The notes under the pieces were generated by a model. The model made no database searches, was not told where the DNA came from, and saw only the letters and a program-made list of their open reading frames with translations. The position numbers were made by a program, and so were the translations under genes. A stretch of 56,332 nt of DNA from positions 1 through 56,332 of the forward strand of contig CAYTTP010000003.1 in the NCBI GenBank assembly GCA_964440955.1. Reading direction: 5' to 3'. The stretch comes from an uncultured Candidatus Saccharibacteria bacterium (lineage in GTDB: Bacteria > Patescibacteriota > Minisyncoccia > Phycocordibacterales > WO2-35-19). This document shows positions 6,515 to 55,077 of the stretch, piece by piece; position 1 is the stretch's first letter; every line of letters begins with the position of its first letter.

Positions 6515-6952
6515 ATGAATCGTCAAAATTTTAAAAAAGTTTTCACTATTGTTTTGGTACTTGCTCTTGTGGCGAGCGTCATCCTACCTCTCTTCACTTC
6601 GGCTCAAACCACTGATGATTCTAATCCACTCGTCCCTTGCGGTGGTCCTGGCCAAAAAGCTTGTGGCTATTACGACTTGTTGCGACTTGTGAACAATCTC
6701 ATTGATTGGGTGATCAAAATATCCATCCCTATTTCGGCCGGCATTTTTGCTTGGGCAGGTATTCAATATATGATGACGGGTGTTATGGACAAAAAAGCTC
6801 AAGCCAAAAAAATGCTAATGAATACCTTTTGGGGTTTTGTTTTTATTCTCTCTGCTTGGATTATAGTGTCGCTTGTGATAAATACCTTGCTCAATCCGGA
6901 GTATCGGGCTGATGTTGATGATACAATAAATCTAACCAAACCAACCAACTAA
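6515..6952 (+). CDS. pilin-like small membrane protein (TrbC/VirB2-like, CPR T4SS-pilin type), long form
   Basis: Signal/TM segment, Cys pair (VPCGGPGQKACGY), then a two-helix hairpin with WAGIQYMMTG...AKKML...FILSAWIIV. Confidence 0.6.
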   Translation: MNRQNFKKVFTIVLVLALVASVILPLFTSAQTTDDSNPLVPCGGPGQKACGYYDLLRLVNNLIDWVIKISIPISAGIFAWAGIQYMMTGVMDKKAQAKKMLMNTFWGFVFILSAWIIVSLVINTLLNPEYRADVDDTINLTKPTN

Positions 6953-6954
6953 CC

Positions 6955-7371
6955 ATGAAAACATTTTTTAAAAAATATTTTTTTGTTTCGCTGATTACTT
7001 GTATTCTATCTTTGTCCTTTTTACCAAGCAGTTTATACTCTCAAGATGGTGGCAATCCTGGTGCTGGGGGTGGTAATCCGGGAGGTGGTTCCTCTTACCC
7101 AATCAAAATAGCAAACCCATTTAAACAAAGCAGTATCACCGACCTTATCACTATAATCATCAAAGAAATATTGATGCCAATAGGGGCAGTGATTGCGGTA
7201 CTTATGATCATGTATGCTGGTTTTATGTATGTTACTGCTCAAGGCAATTCAACTAAAATCACCGAAGCCACTAAAGCTCTCAAATATGCCGTCATCGGCT
7301 CAGCCATCCTTATCGGCGCTTGGACTATTTCCGAAGCTATTAGGGCGACTGTCGGTCAATTAAGGGTATAA
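6955..7371 (+). CDS. pilin-like small membrane protein, long form with Gly-rich spacer
   Basis: Signal peptide, GGNPGAGGGNPGGG spacer, then MYAGFMYVTAQGN...ATKALKYAVIGSAILIGAW, as in the preceding paralog. Confidence 0.6.
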   Translation: MKTFFKKYFFVSLITCILSLSFLPSSLYSQDGGNPGAGGGNPGGGSSYPIKIANPFKQSSITDLITIIIKEILMPIGAVIAVLMIMYAGFMYVTAQGNSTKITEATKALKYAVIGSAILIGAWTISEAIRATVGQLRV

Positions 7372-10437: not shown

Positions 10438-11895
10438 TTATGGGTGAGGTTTCGGTGTTGCTGTGGGGTTCGTGGGTGGGGGTGGGGCTGAAGTAGGAGT
10501 GGTTACTATGGTCTGTACTGCTTTGGTTAGTGATCCAATAATGGATAAATCCATCGGCAGGATCACACCTCCTTTCCCTTGACTGGCTTCAACTGCCGCT
10601 TCAGTTTTCACAATGAGTTCACCCATAGGTGAATCACCGAGTGCGGCAATCTTAGCTTTGATACCAGCGGCTTCAGCAAGCATGTCAGCTTGTTTAGCTG
10701 ATGCATTACCTGCTCCTTCGTTGATCTTCTTTTTCTTGTCACCTTCAGAGATGTTAATCGTCGACTGCCGGGTACCCTCTGAAGCAGTGACGATAGCGGC
10801 TTTTTTGTAGCCAGCCTCCACTGCGTGCGCCATCTCCTTATTGACGTCTTTGGGGAAACCAGGGTCTTTGATGGAGACACTGATTAGATTTACTCCTAGG
10901 TTCGGGTTGGGGTTAGTAAGGCCTTGTTGGCTATTCGGCTCCCCGATCAACTGTTCGATTCGGTATCTGATAATAGCGCAAACAATGTCTTTGTGTGCGT
11001 TCATCATACCTGCCGTCATGACACCGGTGAGCTCTTGGATTGTTCCCTTTGCCACATTAGCGATATTTCTACTCAGTGTTTCAATATCACCAAGAGTAGA
11101 AATGAACTTGCCAGCGTCCTCGATCCTGTATGACAGGATTAGGCGTGGTTCGCATGTGATGGCTTGGTGTAGTGGGTCGTTCTTTGATTTCCCGTACTTC
11201 TGCACTTCTGGTAATCCTATCCTTAGGGCATCTGGGATATTACCTATGGTCCCTTTTGCCAAGAGGAGAGCGTCTATCGACGGGAAAGTCACTCTGAATG
11301 GCGCTCTGTCCAGAAAAGTGTTGTTGATTTTATCATCCACAATTGCTTTTCCGAGTGTATCTGTAAGATGGGACCCAACCTCCGTTTGGATGACATTTTC
11401 AGTCACTGTCTCTATCCTGTTTAATAAGGCAAAGACATAGTATAGGCCAGGCCCGACCTTCCCCTTATTGCGTTCAAGTTGGAGTCTTACCCCAATTTCG
11501 CCAATGACGACTCTTTTGAAGCTTATCAGTACATGCAGTGTAACTGCGATGCATGCGAGAGGCAGCCAGTTTGACTCTTCATCGCTTAGCACCATCCCCA
11601 CCATGATTACGGTAGGGTATGTTACTAGCGCTAACAAGGCATCAATCTGTGATAACAATGACTGGGGCCCGTTTACGGGAGGTATGTACTTAAACAACCT
11701 CCTGCCGTAGTATATTGTGGCCACTAGCATCGCAATTCCCACGGCATAGATGATATTCCACGGGAAACCATAGGTGACTACGCTTTGTAGCCATCCCCAG
11801 ATTTCTTTCAGTCTTGCTACTGTGTTTATTACTGCCACGAGTAGCCCGAGGATACCACCGGCCCACCATGCAATCTTCTTCTTTCTGGGCGACAT
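10438..11895 (-). CDS. SPFH/band-7 (flotillin/prohibitin-like) domain membrane protein
   Basis: 485 aa with N-terminal TM helices. The central region has SPFH-like character, followed by an Ala/Lys-rich coiled segment (EGDKKKKINEGAGNASAKQADMLAEAAGIKAKIAAL) and a Pro/Thr tail. Confidence 0.7.
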   Translation of the reverse strand: MSPRKKKIAWWAGGILGLLVAVINTVARLKEIWGWLQSVVTYGFPWNIIYAVGIAMLVATIYYGRRLFKYIPPVNGPQSLLSQIDALLALVTYPTVIMVGMVLSDEESNWLPLACIAVTLHVLISFKRVVIGEIGVRLQLERNKGKVGPGLYYVFALLNRIETVTENVIQTEVGSHLTDTLGKAIVDDKINNTFLDRAPFRVTFPSIDALLLAKGTIGNIPDALRIGLPEVQKYGKSKNDPLHQAITCEPRLILSYRIEDAGKFISTLGDIETLSRNIANVAKGTIQELTGVMTAGMMNAHKDIVCAIIRYRIEQLIGEPNSQQGLTNPNPNLGVNLISVSIKDPGFPKDVNKEMAHAVEAGYKKAAIVTASEGTRQSTINISEGDKKKKINEGAGNASAKQADMLAEAAGIKAKIAALGDSPMGELIVKTEAAVEASQGKGGVILPMDLSIIGSLTKAVQTIVTTPTSAPPPPTNPTATPKPHP

Positions 11896-12005: not shown

Positions 12006-12572
12006 GGTCTTCATTTGAGATAACAGCTGTTACTTGTCGGCTTTGGCTTAGCGGGTTTTGCCCGTCTTCGCTAAAGCTTTGGCGGGTGATAGAGGAAAGT
12101 CCGAACATGGGTCTCGACCGAAAGGTACGGGAAAGAGTAGCGGGTAACGCCCGTCGTGCGCAAGCATAGGGTTGCGAACAGAAACGATCCGGTTAAGTCC
12201 GGCTGAAACGGCAAAATACCTATTTCCATGCAAGGCCGTACTGGGAGATGAAAGTTTCTCAGGGTGCCGCTAAAAATCCCCATAAGGATTTTTATCCTGA
12301 GCTAATTTAGGTACATATATCTAAATTGGTCGAAGGATTCTAATCATTAAGGATTGATGATTCGTTTGGCAACAAACGCAACAGATGAATTGTTATCACC
12401 AATTTTGTCTACCGGAGGTAGTAACAAAATTGAGTGTCCCGCGAAACGTAGTGGAGTGGGGCATATCCAACTTCGCCTTTCGATAAACTCAAGGCTACGC
12501 TGGATGCTCAATTTTGCAGCTACTTGCAGTAGGCAAAATTGGCACAGAATTCGGCTTATGATAATGAAGATC
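12006..12572 (+). ncRNA. rnpB: RNase P RNA (bacterial type A-like), expanded to about 567 nt
   Basis: GAGGAAAGTCC at 12092-12102 and ACAGAATTCGGCTTAT at 12544-12559. GGGTAACGCC, CAACAGAAA-like and AGATGAAT motifs lie between them. P1 pairs GGTCTTCATT (12006-12015) with AATGAAGATC (12563-12572). The P3 hairpin is at 12061-12086. Confidence 0.88.
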
Positions 12573-18003: not shown

Positions 18004-18076
18004 CCGCCCGTAGCTCAGTTGGTAGAGCAGCTCCCTCTTAAGGAGATGGTCGTAGGTTCGACTCCTACCGGGCGGA
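18004..18076 (+). tRNA. tRNA-Lys(CUU), no CCA encoded
   Basis: Acceptor CCGCCCG/CGGGCGG, D arm GCTC-AGTTGGTA-GAGC, anticodon loop CTCTTAA, T arm GTAGG-TTCGACT-CCTAC, A73. The C1:G72 pair is unusual. Confidence 0.85.
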
Positions 18077-18239
18077 CAATATTGTTTCGCAATATTGTTC
18101 GACCGAGCACGCAAACTGCTTTGCGTGCGTGTAGGAAGTCGAAAGCCGGAGCCATGTTGAGCGAAGCGAAACAGGCGAGGCGGGGTCGCAAGATTTTGCT
18201 AAGCAAAATACTTGTGACCGACTCCTACCGGGCGGACAA
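18059..18239 (+). repeat. tRNA-3'-end-associated structured element, type A (tRNA-Lys copy 1), with 21-nt direct repeats
   Basis: CGACTCCTACCGGGCGGACAA lies at 18059-18079 and 18219-18239. The element carries TGTTCGACCG (antisense to the acceptor 3' strand), a CUGC-apex hairpin, GTAGGAAGTCG (antisense to CGACTCCTAC), a GAGCGAAGCGAA loop, and GGGGTCGCAAG-hairpin-ACTTGTGACC. Confidence 0.78.
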
Positions 18240-18372
18240 GCGTGAAGAAAATCTAAACTGCTTTAGATTTTTAGCTTGTCCGAGACGGAGCCATGTTTTT
18301 GTAGCAACAAAAACAGGCGAGTCAGGATCGTGGAAATTTTTGAGCGACGGCGATAAAATTATCCATGATGAC
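18240..18372 (+). repeat. tRNA-3'-end-associated structured element, type A, second tandem copy (divergent 3' module)
   Basis: It starts with AGCGTGAAGAAAATCTAAACTGCTTTAGATTTTTAGCTTGT, identical to the tRNA-Ala copy. The 3' module GTCAGGATCGTGGA-hairpin-TCCATGATGAC is analogous but diverged. GACAATATTG recurs at 18075 and 18370. Confidence 0.65.
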
Positions 18373-27135: not shown

Positions 27136-28056
27136 TTGTATAAATCAAATAAAATAGGTTATCCTCTGTTCGGAGGCCTTGTGGATAAACCTGCATTTGA
27201 AAGGTATTTTCTGAGAGATGTAAATCATCAGAGTGGTAGGGTGAAAAATCGAGAAATTTTTGCTCCAAACGATTCAATGCGTGAGGTGCAAGAGGGTATA
27301 GTGGCCAAACTTCGGTCTTTGGAGATTGAGATGCCGAGCGCGACTGGTGGTGTCAGGAATGGTTCGCCAGTCAATAACGTCCTCAAACATTGGTCACCTT
27401 ACAATAAGAGTGCGAGATACTTTTTTCTGCTTGATCTAGCATCTGCTTACAAGAATGTCCTTGTGAGCGATATGTTAGTTGAACTGAAGAGGGTGTGGCC
27501 ACATGATTGCGACGAGAAGTTTGTTCAGAGTGTTATGAATCACTGCTTGATACCGGGTGAGGGTTTGGCAACTGGAGGTAACGCCTCGCCAGATATTTTC
27601 AACCTATGTATGGAGATTTCGATTGATCGGCAAATACGCTCGTATGCCGAATACAACGATCTCACCTACACTCGTTATCTCGATGATCTGACTTTCTCAT
27701 CTCCTTTTCCGATAGGTAAGAGGAAGAGGAATACGATCATCAAGATTCTCACTGAAGCTGGTTGTGTCGTTAACCATCAAAAGTCTCAGGTGCTTGATAT
27801 CGAAAAGCATCATGTGGAAATAAATGGTATCGGCTTGCGTCGTAGCGGACACTTCTTCATGCCTAGTCGGGTCTTGGATGAGTTAAAAAACTTGCTCTAT
27901 CGGGCAACTAGAGGGGAGTCCATTTCCGATTCTCTCATTCAAGGCAAGATGGGCGGGTTCATCTATCTTAGGAGAAAAGGCTTGCTTGCTCTGACCGAGA
28001 GAGAACGTAATATCCTTCGACGGTACGAGCAATATCTGCCGTTGCGCCGGGGTTAA
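27136..28056 (+). CDS. reverse transcriptase, minimal stand-alone type (retron/defence-RT-like)
   Basis: RT motifs: NREIFAPNDSMREVQ, SATGGVRNGSPVNNVLKH, FFLLDLASAY, GLATGGNASPDIFNL, YTRYLDDLTFSS (27676-27687), VNHQKS, EINGIGL. The likely true start is GTG 27181, behind GGAGG at 27172-27176. Confidence 0.88.
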   Translation: MYKSNKIGYPLFGGLVDKPAFERYFLRDVNHQSGRVKNREIFAPNDSMREVQEGIVAKLRSLEIEMPSATGGVRNGSPVNNVLKHWSPYNKSARYFFLLDLASAYKNVLVSDMLVELKRVWPHDCDEKFVQSVMNHCLIPGEGLATGGNASPDIFNLCMEISIDRQIRSYAEYNDLTYTRYLDDLTFSSPFPIGKRKRNTIIKILTEAGCVVNHQKSQVLDIEKHHVEINGIGLRRSGHFFMPSRVLDELKNLLYRATRGESISDSLIQGKMGGFIYLRRKGLLALTERERNILRRYEQYLPLRRG

Positions 28057-28597: not shown

Positions 28598-28681
28598 GCG
28601 TCGGTGGTAGAGTGGTCAATTACAACAGACTGTAAATCTGTCGCCCATTGGGCTACGCAGGTTCGAATCCTGCCCGGCGCA
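28598..28681 (+). tRNA. tRNA-Tyr(GUA), class II, no CCA encoded
   Basis: Acceptor GCGTCGG/CCGGCGC, anticodon arm CAGAC-TGTAAAT-CTG, long variable arm CGCCCATTGGGC, T arm GCAGG-TTCGAAT-CCTGC, A73. Confidence 0.88.
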
Positions 28682-28872
28682 CAAAATAAAACCCAGCTTC
28701 TGCTGGTGTTTTATTTTGTGCGCCGGAAGTGCAGCTTTGTGTAGCAAAGCGTAGCACGGATTCGAAAGGCGGAAGAAATTTTTTAGCAAAAAAATTTCTG
28801 AGCCGGGGTCGCGAGCGATTTTGCTTGACTGAAGCAAAATCGACTTGTGACCGAATCCTGCCCGGCGCACCA
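28664..28872 (+). repeat. tRNA-3'-end-associated structured element, type A (tRNA-Tyr copy), with 19-nt direct repeats
   Basis: CGAATCCTGCCCGGCGCAC lies at 28664-28682 and 28852-28870; the second copy reads through to ...ACCA. Internal antisense segments are GTGCGCCGG (28718-28726) and GCACGGATTCG (28754-28764). The 3' module GGTCGCGAG-hairpin-CTTGTGACC is at 28807-28852. Confidence 0.8.
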
Positions 28873-36106: not shown

Positions 36107-36203
36107 GGGCCTATAGTTCACCATGTCATTCGCGAATGACGTGGTCAGTGGTAGAATAGCGGTCTCCACCCCGTCGCTCGCGAGCGACAGGGTCCAAAAC
36201 CAA
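36107..36203 (+). pseudogene. tRNA-Trp-like 5' fragment interrupted by two palindromic insertions
   Basis: GGGCCTATAGTTCA..TCAGTGGTAGAATAGCGGTCTCCA..CCAAAACC shares ATAGCGGTCTCCAAAACC with the real tRNA-Trp. Insertions are CCATGTCATTCGCGAATGACGTGG (36121-36144) and CCCCGTCGCTCGCGAGCGACAGGG (36169-36192). No 3' half is present. Confidence 0.55.
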
Positions 36204-36209
36204 TACCAG

Positions 36210-36470
36210 ATGTATTACGTCTATATTCTTAAAAATTTAGAGTCTGACTACTTATACATAGGCTACAGTTGTAATCTCAGAAGGAGAATAGAAGAACATA
36301 AAAGTGGTAAGGTTTATACCACCAAGCGATTAGGTAAAAATATCGAGCTTATTTACTACGAAGCTTATAAGAGCAAAGAGGATGCGCAGGATAGGGAAAA
36401 GAGTTTTAAAAAATCTGGTTCAGTGTATAATGGCCTTATTAAAAGAATAAAGAGAAGTAGGGGTGATTAG
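36210..36470 (+). CDS. GIY-YIG nuclease family protein (short stand-alone type)
   Basis: MYYVYILKNLESDYLYIGYSCNLRRRIEEHKSG...YYE... carries the GIY-YIG motifs. The last 10 nt overlap the tRNA-Trp 5' end. The track ORF from 36123 reads through the pseudo-tRNA and is probably not the real start. Confidence 0.8.
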   Translation: MYYVYILKNLESDYLYIGYSCNLRRRIEEHKSGKVYTTKRLGKNIELIYYEAYKSKEDAQDREKSFKKSGSVYNGLIKRIKRSRGD

Positions 36471-36534
36471 TTAAGTGGCATAATAGCGGTCTCCAAAACC
36501 GCGGTCGTGGGTTCGATTCCCTCATCACCCGCCA
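36461..36534 (+). tRNA. tRNA-Trp(CCA), CCA encoded
   Basis: Acceptor GGGTGAT/ATCACCC, anticodon arm GCGGT-CTCCAAA-ACCGC, T arm GTGGG-TTCGATT-CCCTC, then G73-CCA. Confidence 0.9.
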
Positions 36535-36588
36535 AGTCGGGTAGCGCCCGAGACGCGTTAATGAAATACTTTTTAGGTTTTGCATAGA
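36510..36588 (+). repeat. att-like repeat A (tRNA-Trp 3' end plus trailer)
   Basis: GGTTCGATTCC...CCCGCCAAGTCG-hairpin-AGACGCGTTAATGAAATAC-TTTTTAGGTTTTGCATAGA aligns with 37861-37939. Confidence 0.65.
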
Positions 36589-37256
36589 TGAAGGATACAA
36601 AATATTCGTATCAGAATTTAGTAGGATATATAAGTAGAATAATATTTATATTTGGCGTACCACTTATATTTGTCTATTTTTTTATTTATAAACCACTCAC
36701 TTTAAATAAATGTTTTTCATTTGTTAGTGAGGATGCTCTAAATAACAAGACTGTTGAAATTCAGGTGATCCGTTCTTTGGACCAGGTTGCACAAGAAATT
36801 AAATCATTGGATCCTATTTTACCATTAAATAATGACTGGTTTAAATTTAATGTAACTTTTAGTAATAATTTTAAAGTTGCAATAGTAACATCTAAACCAG
36901 ATTCATACACAGAGGCAACGACAACTTTTTTCTTAGAAACAAAAAACGGAAGCTCTACTATTCCATATGACCAGAAAATAATCATCAATGAAGTAGGGTC
37001 AGAAAATTTAAATAGTCTTATTACAAATCTTGGTTTTATTACAAACAATAAACCTATTTATGTACCTGGCGGCAGTATGATTTCCTTACAAACTAATCCA
37101 AATTTAGGTCAGTTCTGCTCTTTAGTGGAATTAAGTAGAAAATACAAGTTATTAATATACATTGAATCTCTTATAATATTTATTGGTCTGCTTTTAATAA
37201 CCAAAGAAATAATTAGCTTTATAAAACAAGGATTTTCAAATTATTTTAAATTATGA
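36588..37256 (+). CDS. hypothetical membrane protein (very AT-rich)
   Basis: 222 aa with N- and C-terminal hydrophobic helices. No motif recognised. Confidence 0.45.
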   Translation: MKDTKYSYQNLVGYISRIIFIFGVPLIFVYFFIYKPLTLNKCFSFVSEDALNNKTVEIQVIRSLDQVAQEIKSLDPILPLNNDWFKFNVTFSNNFKVAIVTSKPDSYTEATTTFFLETKNGSSTIPYDQKIIINEVGSENLNSLITNLGFITNNKPIYVPGGSMISLQTNPNLGQFCSLVELSRKYKLLIYIESLIIFIGLLLITKEIISFIKQGFSNYFKL

Positions 37257-37283
37257 TAACCTCTGGCCAGAAGGAGGTATGTT

Positions 37284-37763
37284 TTGAACGAACATTGGAC
37301 AGAGATTGAAATTCAAGCTTTGGCCGGAGTCTCAACGTTTGAGGAATTGGCTGAGGTTGCAGTTTGTATTGTTGGACGCATGAGTGCAACTGGAAAGGAG
37401 GTAGTCCAAATCTGTGGGCCAATGAGTACTGGCGGGCTCGGCAACCTAAAGGACAACATGGCCCGTTTTCGTTTGGCCATTGATCGAGCTGCTGAAAATG
37501 GCATCTTGGTCTTCGACCAAATTCCTTTCCAGAACGAGATTATCCGTCTCTGTTCTTTTAAGGAAGGGCAAGACAAATACGATTGGGAGATTCTTGAGGT
37601 TTTCTACAAAAGAATTTTCGAATCAGGTTATGTCCATCGTGCTCTTTTTCTACCAGGTTGGGAGGATTCAGTGGGAGCGAGTTGGGAGCGAGAACTTACA
37701 ACCAAACTTGGCCTCATTGTTGAAGACTACCCAGTCGAGTGGCTTCAGGATTTATGGGTCTGA
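37284..37763 (+). CDS. hypothetical protein
   Basis: 159 aa. TTG start 6 nt after AAGGAGG. GC-richer than the neighbouring ORFs. Confidence 0.5.
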   Translation: MNEHWTEIEIQALAGVSTFEELAEVAVCIVGRMSATGKEVVQICGPMSTGGLGNLKDNMARFRLAIDRAAENGILVFDQIPFQNEIIRLCSFKEGQDKYDWEILEVFYKRIFESGYVHRALFLPGWEDSVGASWERELTTKLGLIVEDYPVEWLQDLWV

Positions 37764-37805
37764 ACAGAAGTTCAGACCCAATTTTGTTACCGCCCGAGAT
37801 GCTTC

Positions 37806-37939
37806 GATTATGCTAGTATAAAAATAATAAGAAAAGCCTTGTGGTGCAATGAACAAAAGAGGTTCGAATCCGAGACGGCCCGCCAAGTCGTGCACAGCAC
37901 GAGATGCATTAATGAAATAGTTTTCTAATTTTGCATAGA
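37806..37939 (+). repeat. att-like repeat B (tRNA-3'-end-like GGTTCGAATCCGAGACGGCCCGCCA with shared flanks)
   Basis: 37861-37939 matches repeat A. 37806-37885 matches 38878-38957 (TGCTAGTATAAAA...CTTGTGG...CCGAGACGGCCCGC). No cloverleaf can be drawn. Confidence 0.6.
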
Positions 37940-37974
37940 CTTACCTTAAATTTATGAGCTGATATAATTTTGGT

Positions 37975-38388
37975 ATGAAAATCATTGATCCCGGCCATAT
38001 CTACGAGCTAAGGCAATTAGGCGATGATAAGACTCAAACTCTGACTTTTATAAAACGTTCTAGTGGTACAATCCAATATGATAAAGAATGGTCAGGACTT
38101 CAAACTCAAGAAGTTTTAAGAGCTTTGATAGATAGGACTTTATATTTAGATAAGGTTTTAGAATGTAAAGAAACAAAAGAAGCAATTAAACATCTCCGAG
38201 CTACCTTATACTGGTATGAAGTGAGAGCTTTGAGGAGAAAAAGATCAAAAACAAATCGAACAACAAACAACCATGATGATTCTGAAACTCCTCCCTATGA
38301 AATGCAATATGCTCCAGATATTCCATTTACTGAAGTTGATATAGAGAAAAAAGAGATTGGAGAGGATGGTCATATAATTCAGTATTAA
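37975..38388 (+). CDS. hypothetical protein
   Basis: 137-aa ORF. No motif recognised. Confidence 0.45.
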   Translation: MKIIDPGHIYELRQLGDDKTQTLTFIKRSSGTIQYDKEWSGLQTQEVLRALIDRTLYLDKVLECKETKEAIKHLRATLYWYEVRALRRKRSKTNRTTNNHDDSETPPYEMQYAPDIPFTEVDIEKKEIGEDGHIIQY

Positions 38389-38390
38389 AT

Positions 38391-38879
38391 ATGAGGAATT
38401 CTACTCTTGTTTTTTTGGTTAAAAGGAATACTAGCAAGAATATTGAAAATATTTGTCTTGCTATGAAAAAGAGAGGCTTTGGGGCTGGGCGATATAACGG
38501 CACAGGTGGAAAGGTAGAAGAAGAAACTATAGAAGAAGCAGCCATTCGGGAAACAAGAGAGGAGATTGGTGTTCAAGTGGAAAATTTAGTTAAAGTTGCA
38601 AAATTAGAATTTAGATTTCCACATAATCCAGCATGGGATCAGATAGTGCATGTATTTTTGTCAGAAATTTGGGATGGAGAACTGACGGAAAGTGAAGAGA
38701 TGAAACCAGAATGGTTTTCGGTTAGTAAGATTCCATACGATACTATGTGGCCAGATGATAAGTTCTGGTTGCCAAAAGTTATTGCTGGAGATCTGATTAA
38801 AGGTAGTTTCGTCTTTGGTGAGAATGATATTGTAGTTCAGCAAGAAGTCGATGTGGTATCTATGTTCAGGGAAGCTTAG
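38391..38879 (+). CDS. NUDIX hydrolase (MutT-like)
   Basis: Nudix box GGKVEEETIEEAAIRETREEIGV. Confidence 0.85.
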   Translation: MRNSTLVFLVKRNTSKNIENICLAMKKRGFGAGRYNGTGGKVEEETIEEAAIRETREEIGVQVENLVKVAKLEFRFPHNPAWDQIVHVFLSEIWDGELTESEEMKPEWFSVSKIPYDTMWPDDKFWLPKVIAGDLIKGSFVFGENDIVVQQEVDVVSMFREA

Positions 38880-38957
38880 ATTGTGCTAGTATAAAATTGA
38901 TTAGAAAAATCTTGTGGGACGACAAACTTAAAATGTTTGAACCCGAGACGGCCCGCA
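38878..38957 (+). repeat. att-like repeat C (partial)
   Basis: TTGTGCTAGTATAAAATTG...TCTTGTGGGACGACAAAC...TTTGAACCCGAGACGGCCCGCA aligns with 37806-37885. Confidence 0.55.
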
Positions 38958-38966
38958 ATATTTGAA

Positions 38967-39506
38967 ATGAATAACAATCTCAAAACAGCGGTGTTTGCCA
39001 ATGGATGCTTTTGGTGTACAGAAGCAGTATTTAAAATGCTTAGAGGAGTTTTGTCGGTAGTACCCGGATATACAGGAGGTGACACACCAAACCCAACTTA
39101 TGACAACGTTTGTAGTGGTGCGACCGGACACGCTGAAGCTATAAAAATTGAGTATGACTCGACTATTATTTCGTATGAAGATTTGCTTACTGTCTTCTTT
39201 TACACTCATGATCCAACCACTCTAAACAGACAGGGCAATGATGTAGGTACCCAATACCGTTCGGCCATCTTTTACACAACAAGCGAAGAGAAAGAAAAAG
39301 CAGAAGCGGTAATAAAAGAATTAAATGATAAACATGCATACGATAAGCCGATAGTCACAGAGGTGACTTTGCTGGACCATTTTTATGAAGCAGAAAATTA
39401 TCACCATGATTATTATGAAAATCACAAAGATCAAACTTATTGCAACCTTGTCATAACACCCAAACTTGAAAAGATGCAAAAGCGCTTTGCTGAATTATTA
39501 AAATAA
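38967..39506 (+). CDS. msrA: peptide-methionine (S)-S-oxide reductase
   Basis: [15 protein letters not shown] active-site motif. Start chosen at the internal ATG 38967. Confidence 0.92.
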
Positions 39507-39517
39507 ATTTAAATATT

Positions 39518-39910
39518 ATGGACGAGCAGGAAATCAAAAACAAGCTTACACCTGAAGAATATGTTGTTTTGAGGGAGAAGGGTACTGAAGCGCCTTTTTC
39601 CGGCAAATTACTTCATGAAAAAAGGAGTGGTACTTACAATTGCAAAGTTTGTGGGACTGCCCTTTTTGCTTCGACTGCTAAGTTTGATTCGGGTACTGGT
39701 TGGCCTTCGTTTGACCAAGCTCTGCCTGACGCAGTGAAAGAAATCGAGGACAATAGCCATGGTATGCGTCGAGTGGAGATAGTTTGTGCGAAGTGTGGCT
39801 CTCACCTCGGGCATGTTTTCCCTGATGGACCAACAAAAACCGGCATGCGCTATTGTTTAAATTCGGTCTGTCTTGATTTGTCGCCTGACAAGGATCAACC
39901 TCTAAATTAA
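39518..39910 (+). CDS. msrB: peptide-methionine (R)-S-oxide reductase
   Basis: CKVCGTALF...[12 protein letters not shown] zinc CxxC pairs and the catalytic RYCLNS. Confidence 0.92.
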
Positions 39911-40949: not shown

Positions 40950-41030
40950 GCCGGAGTGGCGGAATGGTAGACGCGCACGACTCAAAATCGTGTCTCGCAA
41001 GGGGTGGAGGTTCAAGTCCTCTCTCCGGCA
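40950..41030 (+). tRNA. tRNA-Leu(CAA), class II, no CCA encoded
   Basis: Acceptor GCCGGAG/CTCCGGC, anticodon arm CACGA-CTCAAAA-TCGTG, variable arm, T arm GGAGG-TTCAAGT-CCTCT, A73. Confidence 0.88.
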
Positions 41031-41190
41031 CAGATTGAGCAAAGCGAAAGTGGTGTCGGAGAGGCGTAGCTTTTTGTAAAAAAGCGTTACGCGGACTTGA
41101 AACCCGATTGAGATTTTTTAGGAGTATCGCGAACTAAAAAACCAATTGGGGTACTGAGTCTGTAAGACTCAAGTCCTCTCTCCGGCACCA
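41012..41190 (+). repeat. tRNA-3'-end-associated structured element, type B (tRNA-Leu copy), with 20-nt direct repeats
   Basis: TCAAGTCCTCTCTCCGGCAC lies at 41012-41031 and 41169-41188; the second copy ends ...ACCA. TGGTGTCGGAGAGG (41051-41064) is antisense to CCTCTCTCCGGCACCA. GGACTTGA (41093-41100) is antisense to TCAAGTCC. It begins with GAGCAAAGCGAAAG. Confidence 0.78.
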
Positions 41191-54729: not shown

Positions 54730-55061
54730 TCCGGGATAGCTCAGCGGTAGAGCGAGCGACTGTGTCGTGACGCAGCTTCCAAAAGAAATTTTGGTTGAAA
54801 AACGAGGTGAATTCGGGGGAACCCCAAGTGGGCAATCCCGAGCCAATCCTAAATTAAAGAAAGATATTGTTGTGTAAAAACTTTAATTAAGGCAGGTGTA
54901 GAGACTATTCCGAAAGGAAGTACTTACTCCGTATTTCGGAGTCGGGAAGCGCCTCGCTCCTAATAGCCAATTTGGTTAAAGGAGATGATATAGTCCATAC
55001 TTCTAGTAATAGAAGAGAATATGTAATCGCTTGGTCGTAGGTTCGATCCCTACTCCCGGAG
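54730..55061 (+). tRNA. tRNA-Asn(GUU) interrupted by a group I intron in the anticodon loop; no CCA encoded
   Basis: Exons 54730-54763 and 55024-55061 join to give acceptor TCCGGGA/TCCCGGA (U1:A72, G73 as in tRNA-Asn), anticodon arm AGCGA-CTGTTAA-TCGCT, T arm GTAGG-TTCGATC-CCTAC. Confidence 0.85.
54764..55023 (+). ncRNA. group I intron (IC3-like), 260 nt, no ORF
   Basis: The 5' exon ends in U and the intron ends in G. GCAG (54772-54775) can pair with the exon CUGU as P1. The core strings GAATTCGGGGGAACCCCAAG, GAGCCAA and GGTGTAGAGACTA (54895-54907) match the conserved core of bacterial tRNA group I introns. Confidence 0.85.
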
Positions 55062-55077
55062 CAAAGGAATTTAATAT

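Follow-up and report, generated by a model that had tools for sequence, protein, structure and literature searches.

The window, i.e. the whole stretch of DNA analysed (56,332 nt, a single 56-kb contig), carries a tRNA-Trp gene preceded by a fragment of a second tRNA-Trp gene, and followed by two small gene cassettes bounded by related repeats. The features of the locus are the following:

36107-36201, + strand: 5'-terminal fragment, positions 1-40, of another tRNA-Trp gene, with palindromic inserts at 36121-36147 (27 nt) and 36169-36196 (28 nt)
36210-36470, + strand: GIY-YIG nuclease ORF, 86 aa (Pfam GIY-YIG, E 7.5e-16, residues 30-98 of the longer listed ORF)
36461-36534, + strand: functional tRNA-Trp(CCA), GGGTGAT/ATCACCC allele, CCA encoded (ARAGORN; Rfam tRNA, 61 bits)
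36510-36588, + strand: repeat A, attL-like junction, made of X1 (T loop to CCA, 36510-36534) and Y1 (36535-36588)
36588-37256, + strand: cassette 1, gene 1, 222-aa ORF, hydrophobic near both termini, of 27% GC and matching no family
37284-37763, + strand: cassette 1, gene 2, 159-aa DUF4406 protein, nucleoside 2-deoxyribosyltransferase-like (Pfam DUF4406, E 7e-5; PHROG matches)
37755-37780, + strand: hairpin resembling an intrinsic terminator, at the end of the DUF4406 gene, found also after the homologous gene of genome L031
37792-37939, + strand: repeat B, hybrid attP-like junction between both cassettes, made of W2 (37792-37860), X2 (37861-37885) and Y2 (37886-37939)
37941-37974, + strand: predicted promoter of the 137-aa gene (TTACCT, 16-nt spacer, TGATATAAT, 6 nt to ATG), read directly from the sequence
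37975-38388, + strand: cassette 2, gene 1, 137-aa protein (phrog_2428), widely conserved in Paceibacteria
38391-38879, + strand: cassette 2, gene 2, NUDIX hydrolase, 162 aa, which pairs with the 137-aa gene in L006, L007, L021, L022 and L003
38871-38956, + strand: repeat C, attR-like junction, made of W3 and X3 (38934-38956), with a CCCGC end lacking CCA, directly before the msrA leader
38967-39910, + strand: msrA-msrB, assumed right flank (msrA ATG at 38967), absent from the tRNA-Trp-miaA interval of all sampled relatives

The cassettes are about 1.3 and 1.1 kb in size and host two genes each. Their content had been read in an earlier note on this DNA as an AT-rich membrane ORF plus a GC-richer 159-aa ORF, and a 137-aa ORF plus a NUDIX hydrolase, and the assignments listed above agree with that description. 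The change in composition between ORFs is equally real, GC content being ~27% in the 222-aa ORF, 45-49% in the DUF4406 ORF, 33-38% in cassette 2 and ~40% in the flanks. Since the two cargos are unrelated, a simple tandem duplication is excluded. Homologues of the DUF4406 protein (66 in number) are sporadic and reside in unrelated contexts; the 137-aa protein has 343 homologues (55-90% identity), those found in phages being distant. The promoter of the 137-aa gene has been kept together with Y in L020 and L036, and was not flagged by a strict consensus scan; the corresponding mRNA would be leaderless. The msrAB genes have been assumed to be the ancestral flank. Use of msrA as a checkable native flank was abandoned, as the closest homologues (76% identical) lie after tRNA-Thr and a gene-less insert in another lineage, and are uninformative here.

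The region upstream of the cassettes has been remodelled as well. The listed CDS 36123-36470 is really 36210-36470 (start MYYVYIL), its first 29 codons being the tRNA-Trp 5' fragment, and the stop of the GIY-YIG ORF overlaps the first 10 nt of the functional tRNA-Trp. Once deprived of the inserts, the relic matches an L014-type allele at 24/24 nt, and the resident anticodon arm at the next 16/16 nt; tRNA-Trp alleles are similarly mosaic among relatives. The palindrome pattern GTCNNTCGCGANNGAC occurs at the two relic sites only, against 0.1 occurrences expected. No GIY-YIG homologue was found beside tRNA-Trp in the relatives' loci compared. The coexistence at the locus of a split relic and a GIY-YIG gene suggests that the present tRNA-Trp was probably itself imported.

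Modular junction repeats

The existence of three related repeats downstream of tRNA-Trp, claimed in the earlier note, is far beyond chance. A search for repeats in the window aligned, without gaps, A (36510-36588) to B (37861-37939) at 76% identity over 79 nt; the sequence leading into B, which had been said to recur before msrA, does recur at C, at 78% identity over 86 nt (37798-37883 and 38871-38956). The W and Y motifs are confined to these junctions within the 56 kb, and their observed counts were reached in 0/100 shuffles. Exact occurrences of CCGAGACGGCCCGC in the window are found only in B and C, the motif CGAGAYG is present three times inside B (at 37795, 37871 and 37900), and identity of the Y module is 84% over four copies from three genomes. 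The makeup of the repeats is modular. A consists of the tRNA-Trp 3' end X1 and the trailer Y1, B of W2, X2 and Y2, while C includes W3 and X3, and is followed by msrA. This order corresponds to the attL, attR-attL hybrid and attR layout expected of two related elements with a W-X-Y attachment site.

The notion that the repeats resemble tRNA 3' ends holds fully for A, which is the resident tRNA-Trp end with its trailer, but has to be revised for B and C. X2 and X3 keep perfect register with a tRNA (T loop, 5-nt strand of the T stem, 7-nt strand of the acceptor stem, discriminator and CCA, the latter missing, as Y, in C), but the stem sequences (CCGAG/ACGGCCC) are not the ones found in the resident tRNA-Trp (CCCTC/ATCACCC). 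As real tRNA genes have identical stems, X is a genuine tRNA 3' half, and X2 and X3 represent that of another tRNA allele, rather than being copies of the resident T arm. X3 differs at four T-loop positions, and at none in the 14-nt stem part. The sequence CCGAGACGGCC is unchanged in X2, X3 and an X-like piece found in L031 beside a DUF4406 homologue, and the invariance of this core, despite a variable T loop, suggests a constraint acting outside a tRNA. The end of repeat C (CCCGC followed by AATATTT) resembles CCA-less native ends, in which CCCGC is followed by AAAAATT (L011) or AGAAATATTT (L021); CCGCCA followed by AGTC is common to A, B, L020 and L036. A trailer containing GCCCGAGA is present also after tRNA-Glu, and part of Y could thus be an ordinary tRNA trailer.

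Short hairpins are present both in W-X and in Y. The view of W-X as a stable conserved RNA was discarded, given the weak consensus fold (-2 kcal/mol, one compensatory pair) and z-scores ranging from 0.5 to -2.3. Matches of the window to Rfam covariance models at E <= 0.1 were limited to tRNAs, RNase P and one group I intron, and none corresponded to W-X, Y or the gene-less inserts described below; the weak hits in 36535-38960 (snoR64 at 36577-36640, U4 at 38858-38980, E ~1 or more) were taken as noise. Compared by eye to the consensus sequences, Y matched neither dif/Xer-like nor attC-like sites. The possibility, raised in the earlier note, that the repeats are terminator or promoter modules was rejected in the form of a dispersed regulatory motif, as the motifs are found locally only in the 56 kb; yet, B is flanked by a terminator upstream and by a strong, presumably leaderless promoter downstream.

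The tRNA-Trp interval in relatives and inserts at other tRNA genes

Comparison of tRNA-Trp intervals across relatives, suggested earlier as a check, revealed empty, one-junction and different-proximal-insert states. In L011 and L013 tRNA-Trp abuts miaA, and in L014 the interval is <1 kb; the three are distant relatives (66-72% aminotransferase identity). In L020/L008 tRNA-Trp is joined to Y, followed by the same promoter. In L036, whose 137-aa protein is 90% identical, other ORFs precede the array X'-Y-promoter-137-aa gene, and the upstream sequence is unrelated; similarity of Y and the promoter is significant (0/2000 shuffles equal it), W was not found in this genome, and the breakpoint starts in the T loop. 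In L021 the 137-aa and NUDIX genes directly follow tRNA-Trp, next to miaA, and Y, W and X are missing; W-X-Y repeats are similarly absent at the same genes in L006 and L003. The two genes constitute a widely conserved Paceibacteria pair, and their repeat-free location after tRNA-Trp in L021 makes the mobility of cassette 2 less clear than that of cassette 1. Cassette 2 may be old or native. L031 was tried as a second full example (tRNA-Gln joined to Y', with W'-X further on) and downgraded to weak support, because only the 26-nt X part is significant, Y being equalled in 63/2000 shuffles and W being not significant; the X-like piece lies near tRNA-Gln, not tRNA-Trp. Rather than sharing one interval in conserved order, relatives differ in cargos and flanks. 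The W-X-Y element family rests on very few genomes.

The earlier statement that no integrase is present was confirmed by a Pfam scan, which identified no recombinase or integrase domain among 38 ORFs of the window (the four cargo and 34 further ORFs). No recombinase gene was found on the L031 contig, nor an integrase beside related junctions in the relatives examined; a large serine recombinase resides at the L006 edge, and is not linked to these repeats. Phage genes were not found in the window, which encodes DprA and holds a retron-like reverse transcriptase. The search for the cassettes on phages proposed earlier gave negative results, since IMG/VR lacks both the Y pattern and the DUF4406 protein, and repeat B has no match in INPHARED. 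A phage or plasmid origin was dropped on these grounds, and on the distance of the phage homologues of the 137-aa protein. The Y pattern was detected in one other metagenome contig only, and in zero viral contigs. Exact-protein look-ups aimed at strain polymorphism returned only contigs 100% identical to the window, and no match for msrA and the GIY-YIG ORF. Literature searches retrieved no account of elements of this kind from Patescibacteria.

Inserts bounded by tRNA-end copies have been identified at 6 of the 11 tRNA genes of the window, and at 5 of them a covarying RNA-like hairpin, featuring an invariant G-U, adjoins the copy. Besides tRNA-Trp, the set includes tRNA-Ser, Ala, Lys, Tyr and Leu(caa), which are followed by gene-less structured inserts of 100-170 nt, closed by exact copies (15-47 nt) of their own 3' ends. 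The gene-less inserts fall into two sequence families, and in each insert the tRNA end is copied in both orientations, antisense and sense. Direct repeats at Lys, Tyr, Leu, Ser and Thr begin in the T loop, and other genomes have similar inserts at Tyr, Leu and Thr, their presence varying among relatives. The copy in the tRNA-Ser insert extends 11 nt into the ORF located downstream, a stretch that an incoming att site would not carry. The distal repeat of L012 does not correspond to the resident allele, but retains one found in L011. When viral sequences were scanned loosely for the family-1 hairpin, the output was mostly noise, and filtering recovered one real member, L071. Homology of W-X-Y to the gene-less families was rejected, as nhmmer profiles of both had no match in 36440-39000, and a likeness noted by eye (AGAAAAATCTTGTG) was dropped.

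Models of insertion

Of the serial site-specific integration put forward in the earlier note, the pattern of successive insertions is supported by the junction layout, the unrelated cargos and the comparison with relatives; that recombination was site-specific, rather than an insertion assisted by homology or of the duplicative type, is what we infer. We favour, with about even confidence, the view that two related non-autonomous cassettes inserted successively at the 3' end of tRNA-Trp, and that this end is a variable hot spot in a Zambryskibacteria-like lineage of Patescibacteria. Crossover position, order of events and mobilisation in trans would be as follows. A cassette would consist of the left arm Y (hairpin, CGAGAYGC, TTAATGAAATA and TTTTGCATAGA), one or two cargo genes, the right arm W and the tRNA-3'-half mimic X, ending in CCGAGACGGCCCGC(CA). 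In the circular form, W-X joined to Y would be the attachment site, and its recombination with the end of the tRNA gene, inside the common CCCGC(CA) or adjacent to it, would leave tRNA-Y at the left and W-X-flank at the right. The older insert would be Y2-promoter-137-aa gene-NUDIX-W3-X3; the younger one, Y1-membrane ORF-DUF4406-W2-X2, would have entered the same tRNA end, creating junction B, in which W2-X2 adjoins Y2. The recombinase would act in trans, and be encoded elsewhere, or be only transiently present. In a separate remodelling of the tRNA, the GIY-YIG gene and a different tRNA-Trp allele would have come to lie behind the 5' relic of the older copy.

Classical integration at the T loop with tRNA replacement is possible, if unlikely. 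The left end of the element would be X-Y (its own tRNA 3' half and trailer), the right end W, and crossover would occur between W and X; X3 would be the oldest native 3' half, X2 would come from the older element, and the 3' half of the younger one would have been replaced later, when an entire tRNA-Trp of another allele arrived with the GIY-YIG unit, leaving the relic at 36107. The boundary of the A/B repeat falls exactly at G53 of the T loop, the L036 breakpoint and the repeats of gene-less inserts (Lys, Tyr, Leu, Ser, Thr) also begin in this loop, common X2/X3 stems are expected, as both would fit the same 5' half, relic and imported allele are both present, and there is published precedent for elements disrupting a host tRNA while supplying a replacement (PMC10865867). 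Yet, GGGCCTA in the relic acceptor strand pairs with ACGGCCC of X2 and X3 at only 5/7 positions, the sparing of the X3 stem is odd for a released neutral fragment, more events are required than by serial cassette insertion, and an integrase was not found. The latter result and the DprA gene are in line with the hypothesis that, with no dedicated recombinase, the competence-equipped organism took up DNA, which recombined at the conserved tRNA-Trp and its trailer by homologous or homology-facilitated illegitimate recombination, partial tRNA copies and arms being by-products. The A/B similarity, which includes the 54-nt trailer, resembles blocks of homologous sequence from related genomes rather than a short att core of full identity, and both relic and relatives feature mosaic alleles. 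Nevertheless, we rate such an origin as decidedly unlikely, because homologous right arms (W2 and W3) on two different cargos, recurrent breakpoints at the T loop and the CCA end, and the invariance of CCGAGACGGCC are left unexplained.

Quite improbable is a duplicative insertion in which a structured right-end module (W) is followed by a copy of the tRNA from the T loop on (X, or X-Y), possibly by target-primed reverse transcription or through folded single-stranded DNA, X2 and X3 being fossils of an earlier resident allele. The exact own-tRNA copies at Ser (with the 11 nt of the ORF), Lys, Tyr, Leu(caa) and Ala, the L011-type allele in L012 and the retron-like reverse transcriptase are in line with it; the lack of matches of the gene-less family profiles in the tRNA-Trp region, and the location of the L031 X-like piece near tRNA-Gln are not, and the tRNA allele would have to have been exchanged afterwards, at least once. 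That nothing is mobile, W-X-Y being decayed tRNA-Trp pseudogenes and expression signals which arose by local duplication and were kept as intergenic regulatory modules, is highly improbable. The terminator (37755-37780) and the promoter (37941-37974) on the two sides of B, an extended -10-like sequence (TGCTAGTAT) in W, and the overall length of W and X, close to that of a tRNA gene, with patchy likeness to the tRNA-Trp 5' half, are compatible with such a scenario. However, the motifs are missing from the rest of the 56 kb and from the same genes in L021, L006 and L003, cargos and flanks vary among genomes, and B and C agree in the very sequence assumed to be decayed, an outcome that independent decay would not give.

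Serial cassette insertion and the gene-less inserts might be expressions of one undescribed insertion mechanism of Patescibacteria, W-X-Y being its cargo-carrying form, but we hold this as distinctly doubtful. The segment from the T loop to the 3' end of tRNA genes would be targeted in the absence of a linked integrase. Candidate routes are an attachment site formed by a folded single strand or a hairpin and mimicking the tRNA gene end, suggested by the antisense and sense copies in each gene-less insert, an RNA module (the covarying hairpin with its invariant G-U) abutting the target copy like a guide, or reverse transcription primed at tRNA-like ends.

Relevance and relation to known systems

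Patescibacteria have tiny genomes, in which few mobile elements have been recognised, and the gain and loss of accessory genes in the phylum are poorly understood. The tRNA-Trp locus illustrates a compact, stackable addition of one- or two-gene units in the absence of a resident integrase, at a tRNA gene which has undergone further remodelling, through a nuclease gene and very small palindromic inserts. Were a trans-acting recombinase to exist, W-X-Y sites would represent a minimal cassette system outside integrons. The novelty of the locus, which is CIME-like, is moderate, and the wider phenomenon of tRNA-end inserts is the more interesting lead; if general, the inserts seen at 6/11 tRNA genes would make tRNA-targeted insertion in the phylum directly amenable to testing.

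CIMEs are cis-mobilizable elements, flanked by att sites, which lack integration and transfer genes. The cassettes are similarly flanked by att-type repeats and devoid of recombinase and transfer genes, but are tiny, have no known cognate integrase-bearing element, and their repeats are just 76-78% identical and contain a non-resident tRNA 3' half. Tandem accretion of integrative elements at the 3' ends of tRNA or other genes has been reviewed (PMC5704250), and the array described here, with a hybrid junction between two units at a site of integrative elements, resembles it. Direct repeats including the 3' part of the target tRNA (though with stems that are not the resident ones), and the empty site in L011, L013 and L014, recall islands and prophages integrated by tyrosine integrases, but no integrase gene lies in the insert beside a junction. 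As in integrons, small unrelated cargos are stacked at one site, the presumed newest nearest the entry point, and each unit ends in a related hairpin-containing module, here a putative recombination module. In contrast to integrons, IntI, attI and Pc are missing, a tRNA gene is at the head of the array, the R''/L''-L'/R' architecture, attC-like symmetry, GTTRRRY core and Rfam attC matches are lacking, and cassettes hold two genes plus their own promoter and terminator.

Egan and Landy reportedly described in 1978 178-bp repeats after E. coli tyrT, each containing the last 19 nt of tRNA-Tyr. The inserts at Ser, Lys, Tyr, Leu and Ala are akin to such units of the ~150-180-nt type, as they follow a tRNA and end in a copy of its 3' end, but involve several isotypes and two families, carry an antisense end copy and a covarying hairpin, and are variably present. 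Free-standing GIY-YIG homing endonuclease genes are known, as the seg genes in the tRNA region of T4. The GIY-YIG ORF of the window is likewise a small ORF at a tRNA gene, absent from relatives and surrounded by mosaic alleles suggestive of co-conversion; its 86 aa correspond to the catalytic domain only, and cleavage and homing would be putative activities. Neither a phage nor a tyrosine integrase is found here, the incoming unit is a nuclease gene plus a tRNA, and the cassettes sit downstream of a functional tRNA, unlike in the tRNA-dependent lysogeny of actinobacteriophages (PMC10865867); what the two systems have in common is a disrupted host tRNA, here the relic at 36107-36201, and an imported-looking tRNA of the same isotype, here the tRNA-Trp behind the GIY-YIG gene.

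Repeat modules downstream of tRNA-Trp

The contig belongs to Patescibacteria; in the species-level genome collection, the MAGs nearest to it carry the labels Candidatus Zambryskibacteria, Patescibacteria group or Saccharibacteria. The earlier note on this DNA had reported three related repeats (A, B and C) downstream of tRNA-Trp, bounding two small cassettes. Both repeat pairs were recovered by a repeat search; the diagnostic motifs are confined to A, B and C within 56 kb, and the observed counts were reached in 0 of 100 shuffles. The cargo ORFs (a 222-aa membrane ORF and a 159-aa DUF4406 gene in cassette 1, a 137-aa gene and a NUDIX gene in cassette 2), their family assignments and the GC steps all proved to be as described.

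Features of the tRNA-Trp locus
36461-36534, tRNA-Trp(CCA), CCA encoded (ARAGORN and Rfam)
36510-36588 and 37861-37939, repeats A and B aligned over 79 nt, 76% identity, no gaps
37798-37883 and 38871-38956, repeats B and C aligned over 86 nt, 78% identity, no gaps
37755-37780, terminator of the DUF4406 gene, preceding repeat B

The repeats are modular: A is made of tRNA-Trp (X1) and Y1, B of W2-X2-Y2, and C of W3-X3, immediately followed by the msrA leader. X lines up exactly in register with the 3' half of a tRNA, and includes the T loop, the 5-nt T-stem strand, the 7-nt acceptor strand, the discriminator G and CCA. Y spans the 54 nt after CCA, and features a short hairpin, CGAGAYGC, TTAATGAAATA, nine variable bases and TTTTGCATAGA. 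W covers the ~65 nt preceding X, and carries (GCCCGAGATGC)TTCGATT, TGCTAGTATAAAA, AGAAAA and CTTGTGG. The stems of X2 and X3 read CCGAG/ACGGCCC, those of the resident tRNA-Trp CCCTC/ATCACCC. As GGTTCAAATCCGAGACGGCCC is present exactly in bona fide tRNA genes elsewhere, X is the 3' half of a genuine tRNA allele, rather than a degenerate version of the resident one.

Downstream of B, the array TTACCT-16 nt-TGATATAAT-6 nt-ATG is a strong predicted promoter, which would direct a leaderless mRNA for the 137-aa protein. On the minus strand, the trailer of tRNA-Glu (283-357) extends over 200-282, and contains a hairpin followed by GCGCCCGAGAAGG. The window holds the 8-mer GCCCGAGA three times, in this trailer, in Y1 and in W2. 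As each of these sites is tRNA-linked, part of Y may be a general tRNA-trailer motif.

The tRNA-Trp interval in relatives and the proposed mode of insertion

Eight related loci were found by using the aminotransferase gene as anchor, and tRNA-Trp lies downstream in all of them. Loci carrying homologues of the cassette genes were compared as well.

Organization of loci from other genomes
L011 and L013: miaA abuts tRNA-Trp; no cassettes, no msrAB
L014: tRNA-Trp to tRNA-Leu interval shorter than 1 kb; no cassettes, no msrAB
L020 and L008: tRNA-Trp (GGGCCTA allele) with CCA, then Y and the same promoter, where the contig ends
L036 (137-aa protein 90% identical): other ORFs, degenerate X (X'), Y, promoter, 137-aa gene, different downstream gene
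L021 (137-aa protein 80% identical): tRNA-Trp, 28 nt, then 137-aa gene-cupin-NUDIX-miaA; no W, X or Y

The relatives do not share one interval of conserved order, the finding that the earlier note had set against integration; their differing states denote that the tRNA-Trp interval is hypervariable. In L036 the match to Y and promoter is highly significant, and the stretch before X' shows no relationship to W. The pair formed by the 137-aa and NUDIX genes is widespread among Paceibacteria in varied contexts, and DUF4406 homologues are sporadic (n=66) and found in unrelated contexts. One of these, in locus L031, is immediately preceded by an X-like 26-nt piece (23/26 identical, significant) 1 kb from tRNA-Gln; the W-like and Y-like flanks of this piece are not significant.

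Two successive insertions of related elements having W-X|Y as attachment site would give the A/B/C layout. attL would correspond to tRNA|Y1, the hybrid site to W2-X2|Y2, and attR to W3-X3|flank. Strands would be exchanged in or beside the common CCCGC(CA), at the tRNA 3' end, keeping the host tRNA native throughout, and the cassette-free junction would read tRNA-Trp CCCGC|AATATTTGAAATG-msrA. Such an exchange would explain why internal junctions read CCA-AGTC, whereas C ends in CCCGC|AATATTT, resembling the CCA-less native ends of L011 and L021. CCGAGACGGCC is invariant across X2, X3 and L031, the T-loop part being variable; CGAGAYG occurs in three direct copies inside B, and the inverted GTCGNG lies beside the putative overlap. 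Both features would fit protein-binding sites.

A close rival sets the crossover where W meets X, within the T loop, in the manner of classical T-loop integration. This position fits the A/B repeat boundary at G53, the breakpoint in L036 and the neighbouring gene-less inserts described below; it requires a later replacement of the tRNA, and leaves the uneven conservation of X3 unexplained. Repeats of this kind could also stem from homology-assisted insertion following DNA uptake, or from a duplicative process that copies its target; a non-mobile reading would regard them as pseudogenes or promoters. Among these readings, a crossover at the tRNA 3' end is considered the best explanation, as an inference. 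No recombinase was found among 38 ORFs of the window, in agreement with the lack of an integrase reported in the earlier note, and neither a circular form nor a strain polymorphism was obtained.

A tRNA-Trp relic upstream of the functional gene

The repeats downstream of tRNA-Trp had been correctly noticed; overlooked was a 5' tRNA-Trp relic located upstream.

Features upstream of tRNA-Trp
36107-36201, tRNA-Trp 5' relic between rpmG and the GIY-YIG gene, GGGCCTATAGTTCA...GTGGTAGAATAGCGGTCTCCA...AAACC
36121-36147, palindromic insert, 27 nt, in the D loop of the relic
36169-36196, palindromic insert, 28 nt, in the anticodon loop of the relic
36210-36470, GIY-YIG gene proper, 86 aa, beginning with MYYVYIL, overlapping the functional tRNA-Trp by 10 nt

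Once the two inserts are removed, the relic corresponds to positions 1-40 of tRNA-Trp. It is a mosaic, the first 24 nt being identical to the L014 allele, the following 16 nt to the resident allele. The inserts are near-perfect palindromes of the form GTCNNTCGCGANNGAC, with cores GTCATTCGCGAATGAC and GTCGCTCGCGAGCGAC, each having a 4-nt flanking repeat. The pattern has no further copies anywhere in the window, and the two inserts could be mobile palindromic elements of very small size. The listed 115-aa ORF at 36123-36470 is an artefact of fusion, codons 1-29 being the tRNA-Trp 5' fragment. None of the relatives' loci has the GIY-YIG gene. The functional tRNA-Trp, of the GGGTGAT type, thus seems to have been acquired along with this nuclease gene, with an older copy left in front as a relic.

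Gene-less inserts at other tRNAs and known systems

Five tRNAs in the window (Ser, Ala, Lys, Tyr and Leu-caa) are each directly followed by a gene-less insert of ~100-170 nt, closed by a 15-47-nt copy of the 3' end of the same tRNA.

Gene-less inserts in the window and in other genomes
654-849, at tRNA-Ser
1382-1545, at tRNA-Ala
18060-18368, at tRNA-Lys, tandem pair
28665-28870, at tRNA-Tyr
41011-41188, at tRNA-Leu-caa
L006, 3514-3728
L012, 3144-3575
L013, 6480-6669
L157, 4735-4919
L071, 2864-3214

The tRNA-end copy begins in the T loop everywhere but at Ala, and mostly stops at the discriminator. The Ala copy is limited to a few terminal nt of the tRNA and ~11 nt of trailer; the Ser copy, 47 nt long and 100% identical, continues for 26 nt past the discriminator and reaches into the beginning of the next ORF. 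Towards its left side, each insert also bears the tRNA end in antisense, as an imperfect copy. The inserts fall into two sequence families. Family 1 ends in GAGSCGGGGTCG-hairpin-YGTGACC, family 2 in GTACTGAnnCTGTAAG. In the family-1 hairpin, just before the repeat, compensatory changes affect 9 of 19 pairs, and a G-U pair is invariant. Other Patescibacteria have members of both families at their Tyr, Leu and Thr tRNAs, and one member resides in an IMG/VR contig; some relatives lack the insert at the corresponding tRNA. The inserts have no Rfam match. Since the family profiles do not match the tRNA-Trp cassettes, the two kinds of insertion are linked by logic, rather than by sequence. That a common integrase-independent insertion mechanism targets tRNA ends in Patescibacteria seems rather improbable.

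Other features were observed around tRNAs. tRNA-Asn(GUU) (54734-55065), not called by ARAGORN, is split at anticodon position 35/36 by a group I intron (Rfam 78 bits, 54754-55016), in agreement with a recent description in Patescibacteria (PMC13011429). A retron-like reverse transcriptase of 306 aa (27136-28056; RVT_1) matches retron RT models weakly; downstream of it lie, in this order, a 134-aa ORF without a known family, tRNA-Tyr and the family-1 insert of this tRNA. A similar enzyme is found in L013 (12759-13709) beside miaA and tRNA-Trp. Region 3780-4390 of L157, a further locus from Patescibacteria, is crowded with partial tRNA copies, and includes a tRNA 3'-end-like piece after tRNA-Met; the same locus carries 3'-part and 5'-part duplicates of tRNA-Thr(cgt), and msrAB after tRNA-Thr(ggt) and a family-2 insert. 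Elsewhere in the window, an RNase P RNA match (12074-12453; 39.8 bits against an Rfam gathering score of 100, E 5e-9) is presumably a divergent or reduced lineage form. Two small ORFs lying side by side are T4SS-pilin/TrbC-like, and a protein near them has a weak TrbI-like match (6515-7371 and 10438-11895); these could belong to a conjugation- or pilus-type system, or be what is left of one.

In tRNA-dependent lysogeny the incoming DNA disrupts a tRNA gene of the host and brings a substitute for it (PMC10865867). The upstream relic and the apparently imported tRNA resemble this process, though here neither phage nor integrase was found. The likeness to integron cassettes is functional only, as intI, attI and attC features were tested at the tRNA-Trp locus and not found. 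The closest known kind are CIME-like, integrase-less integrated elements, and the tRNA-Trp locus compares to a tandem pair of such elements at a tRNA gene.
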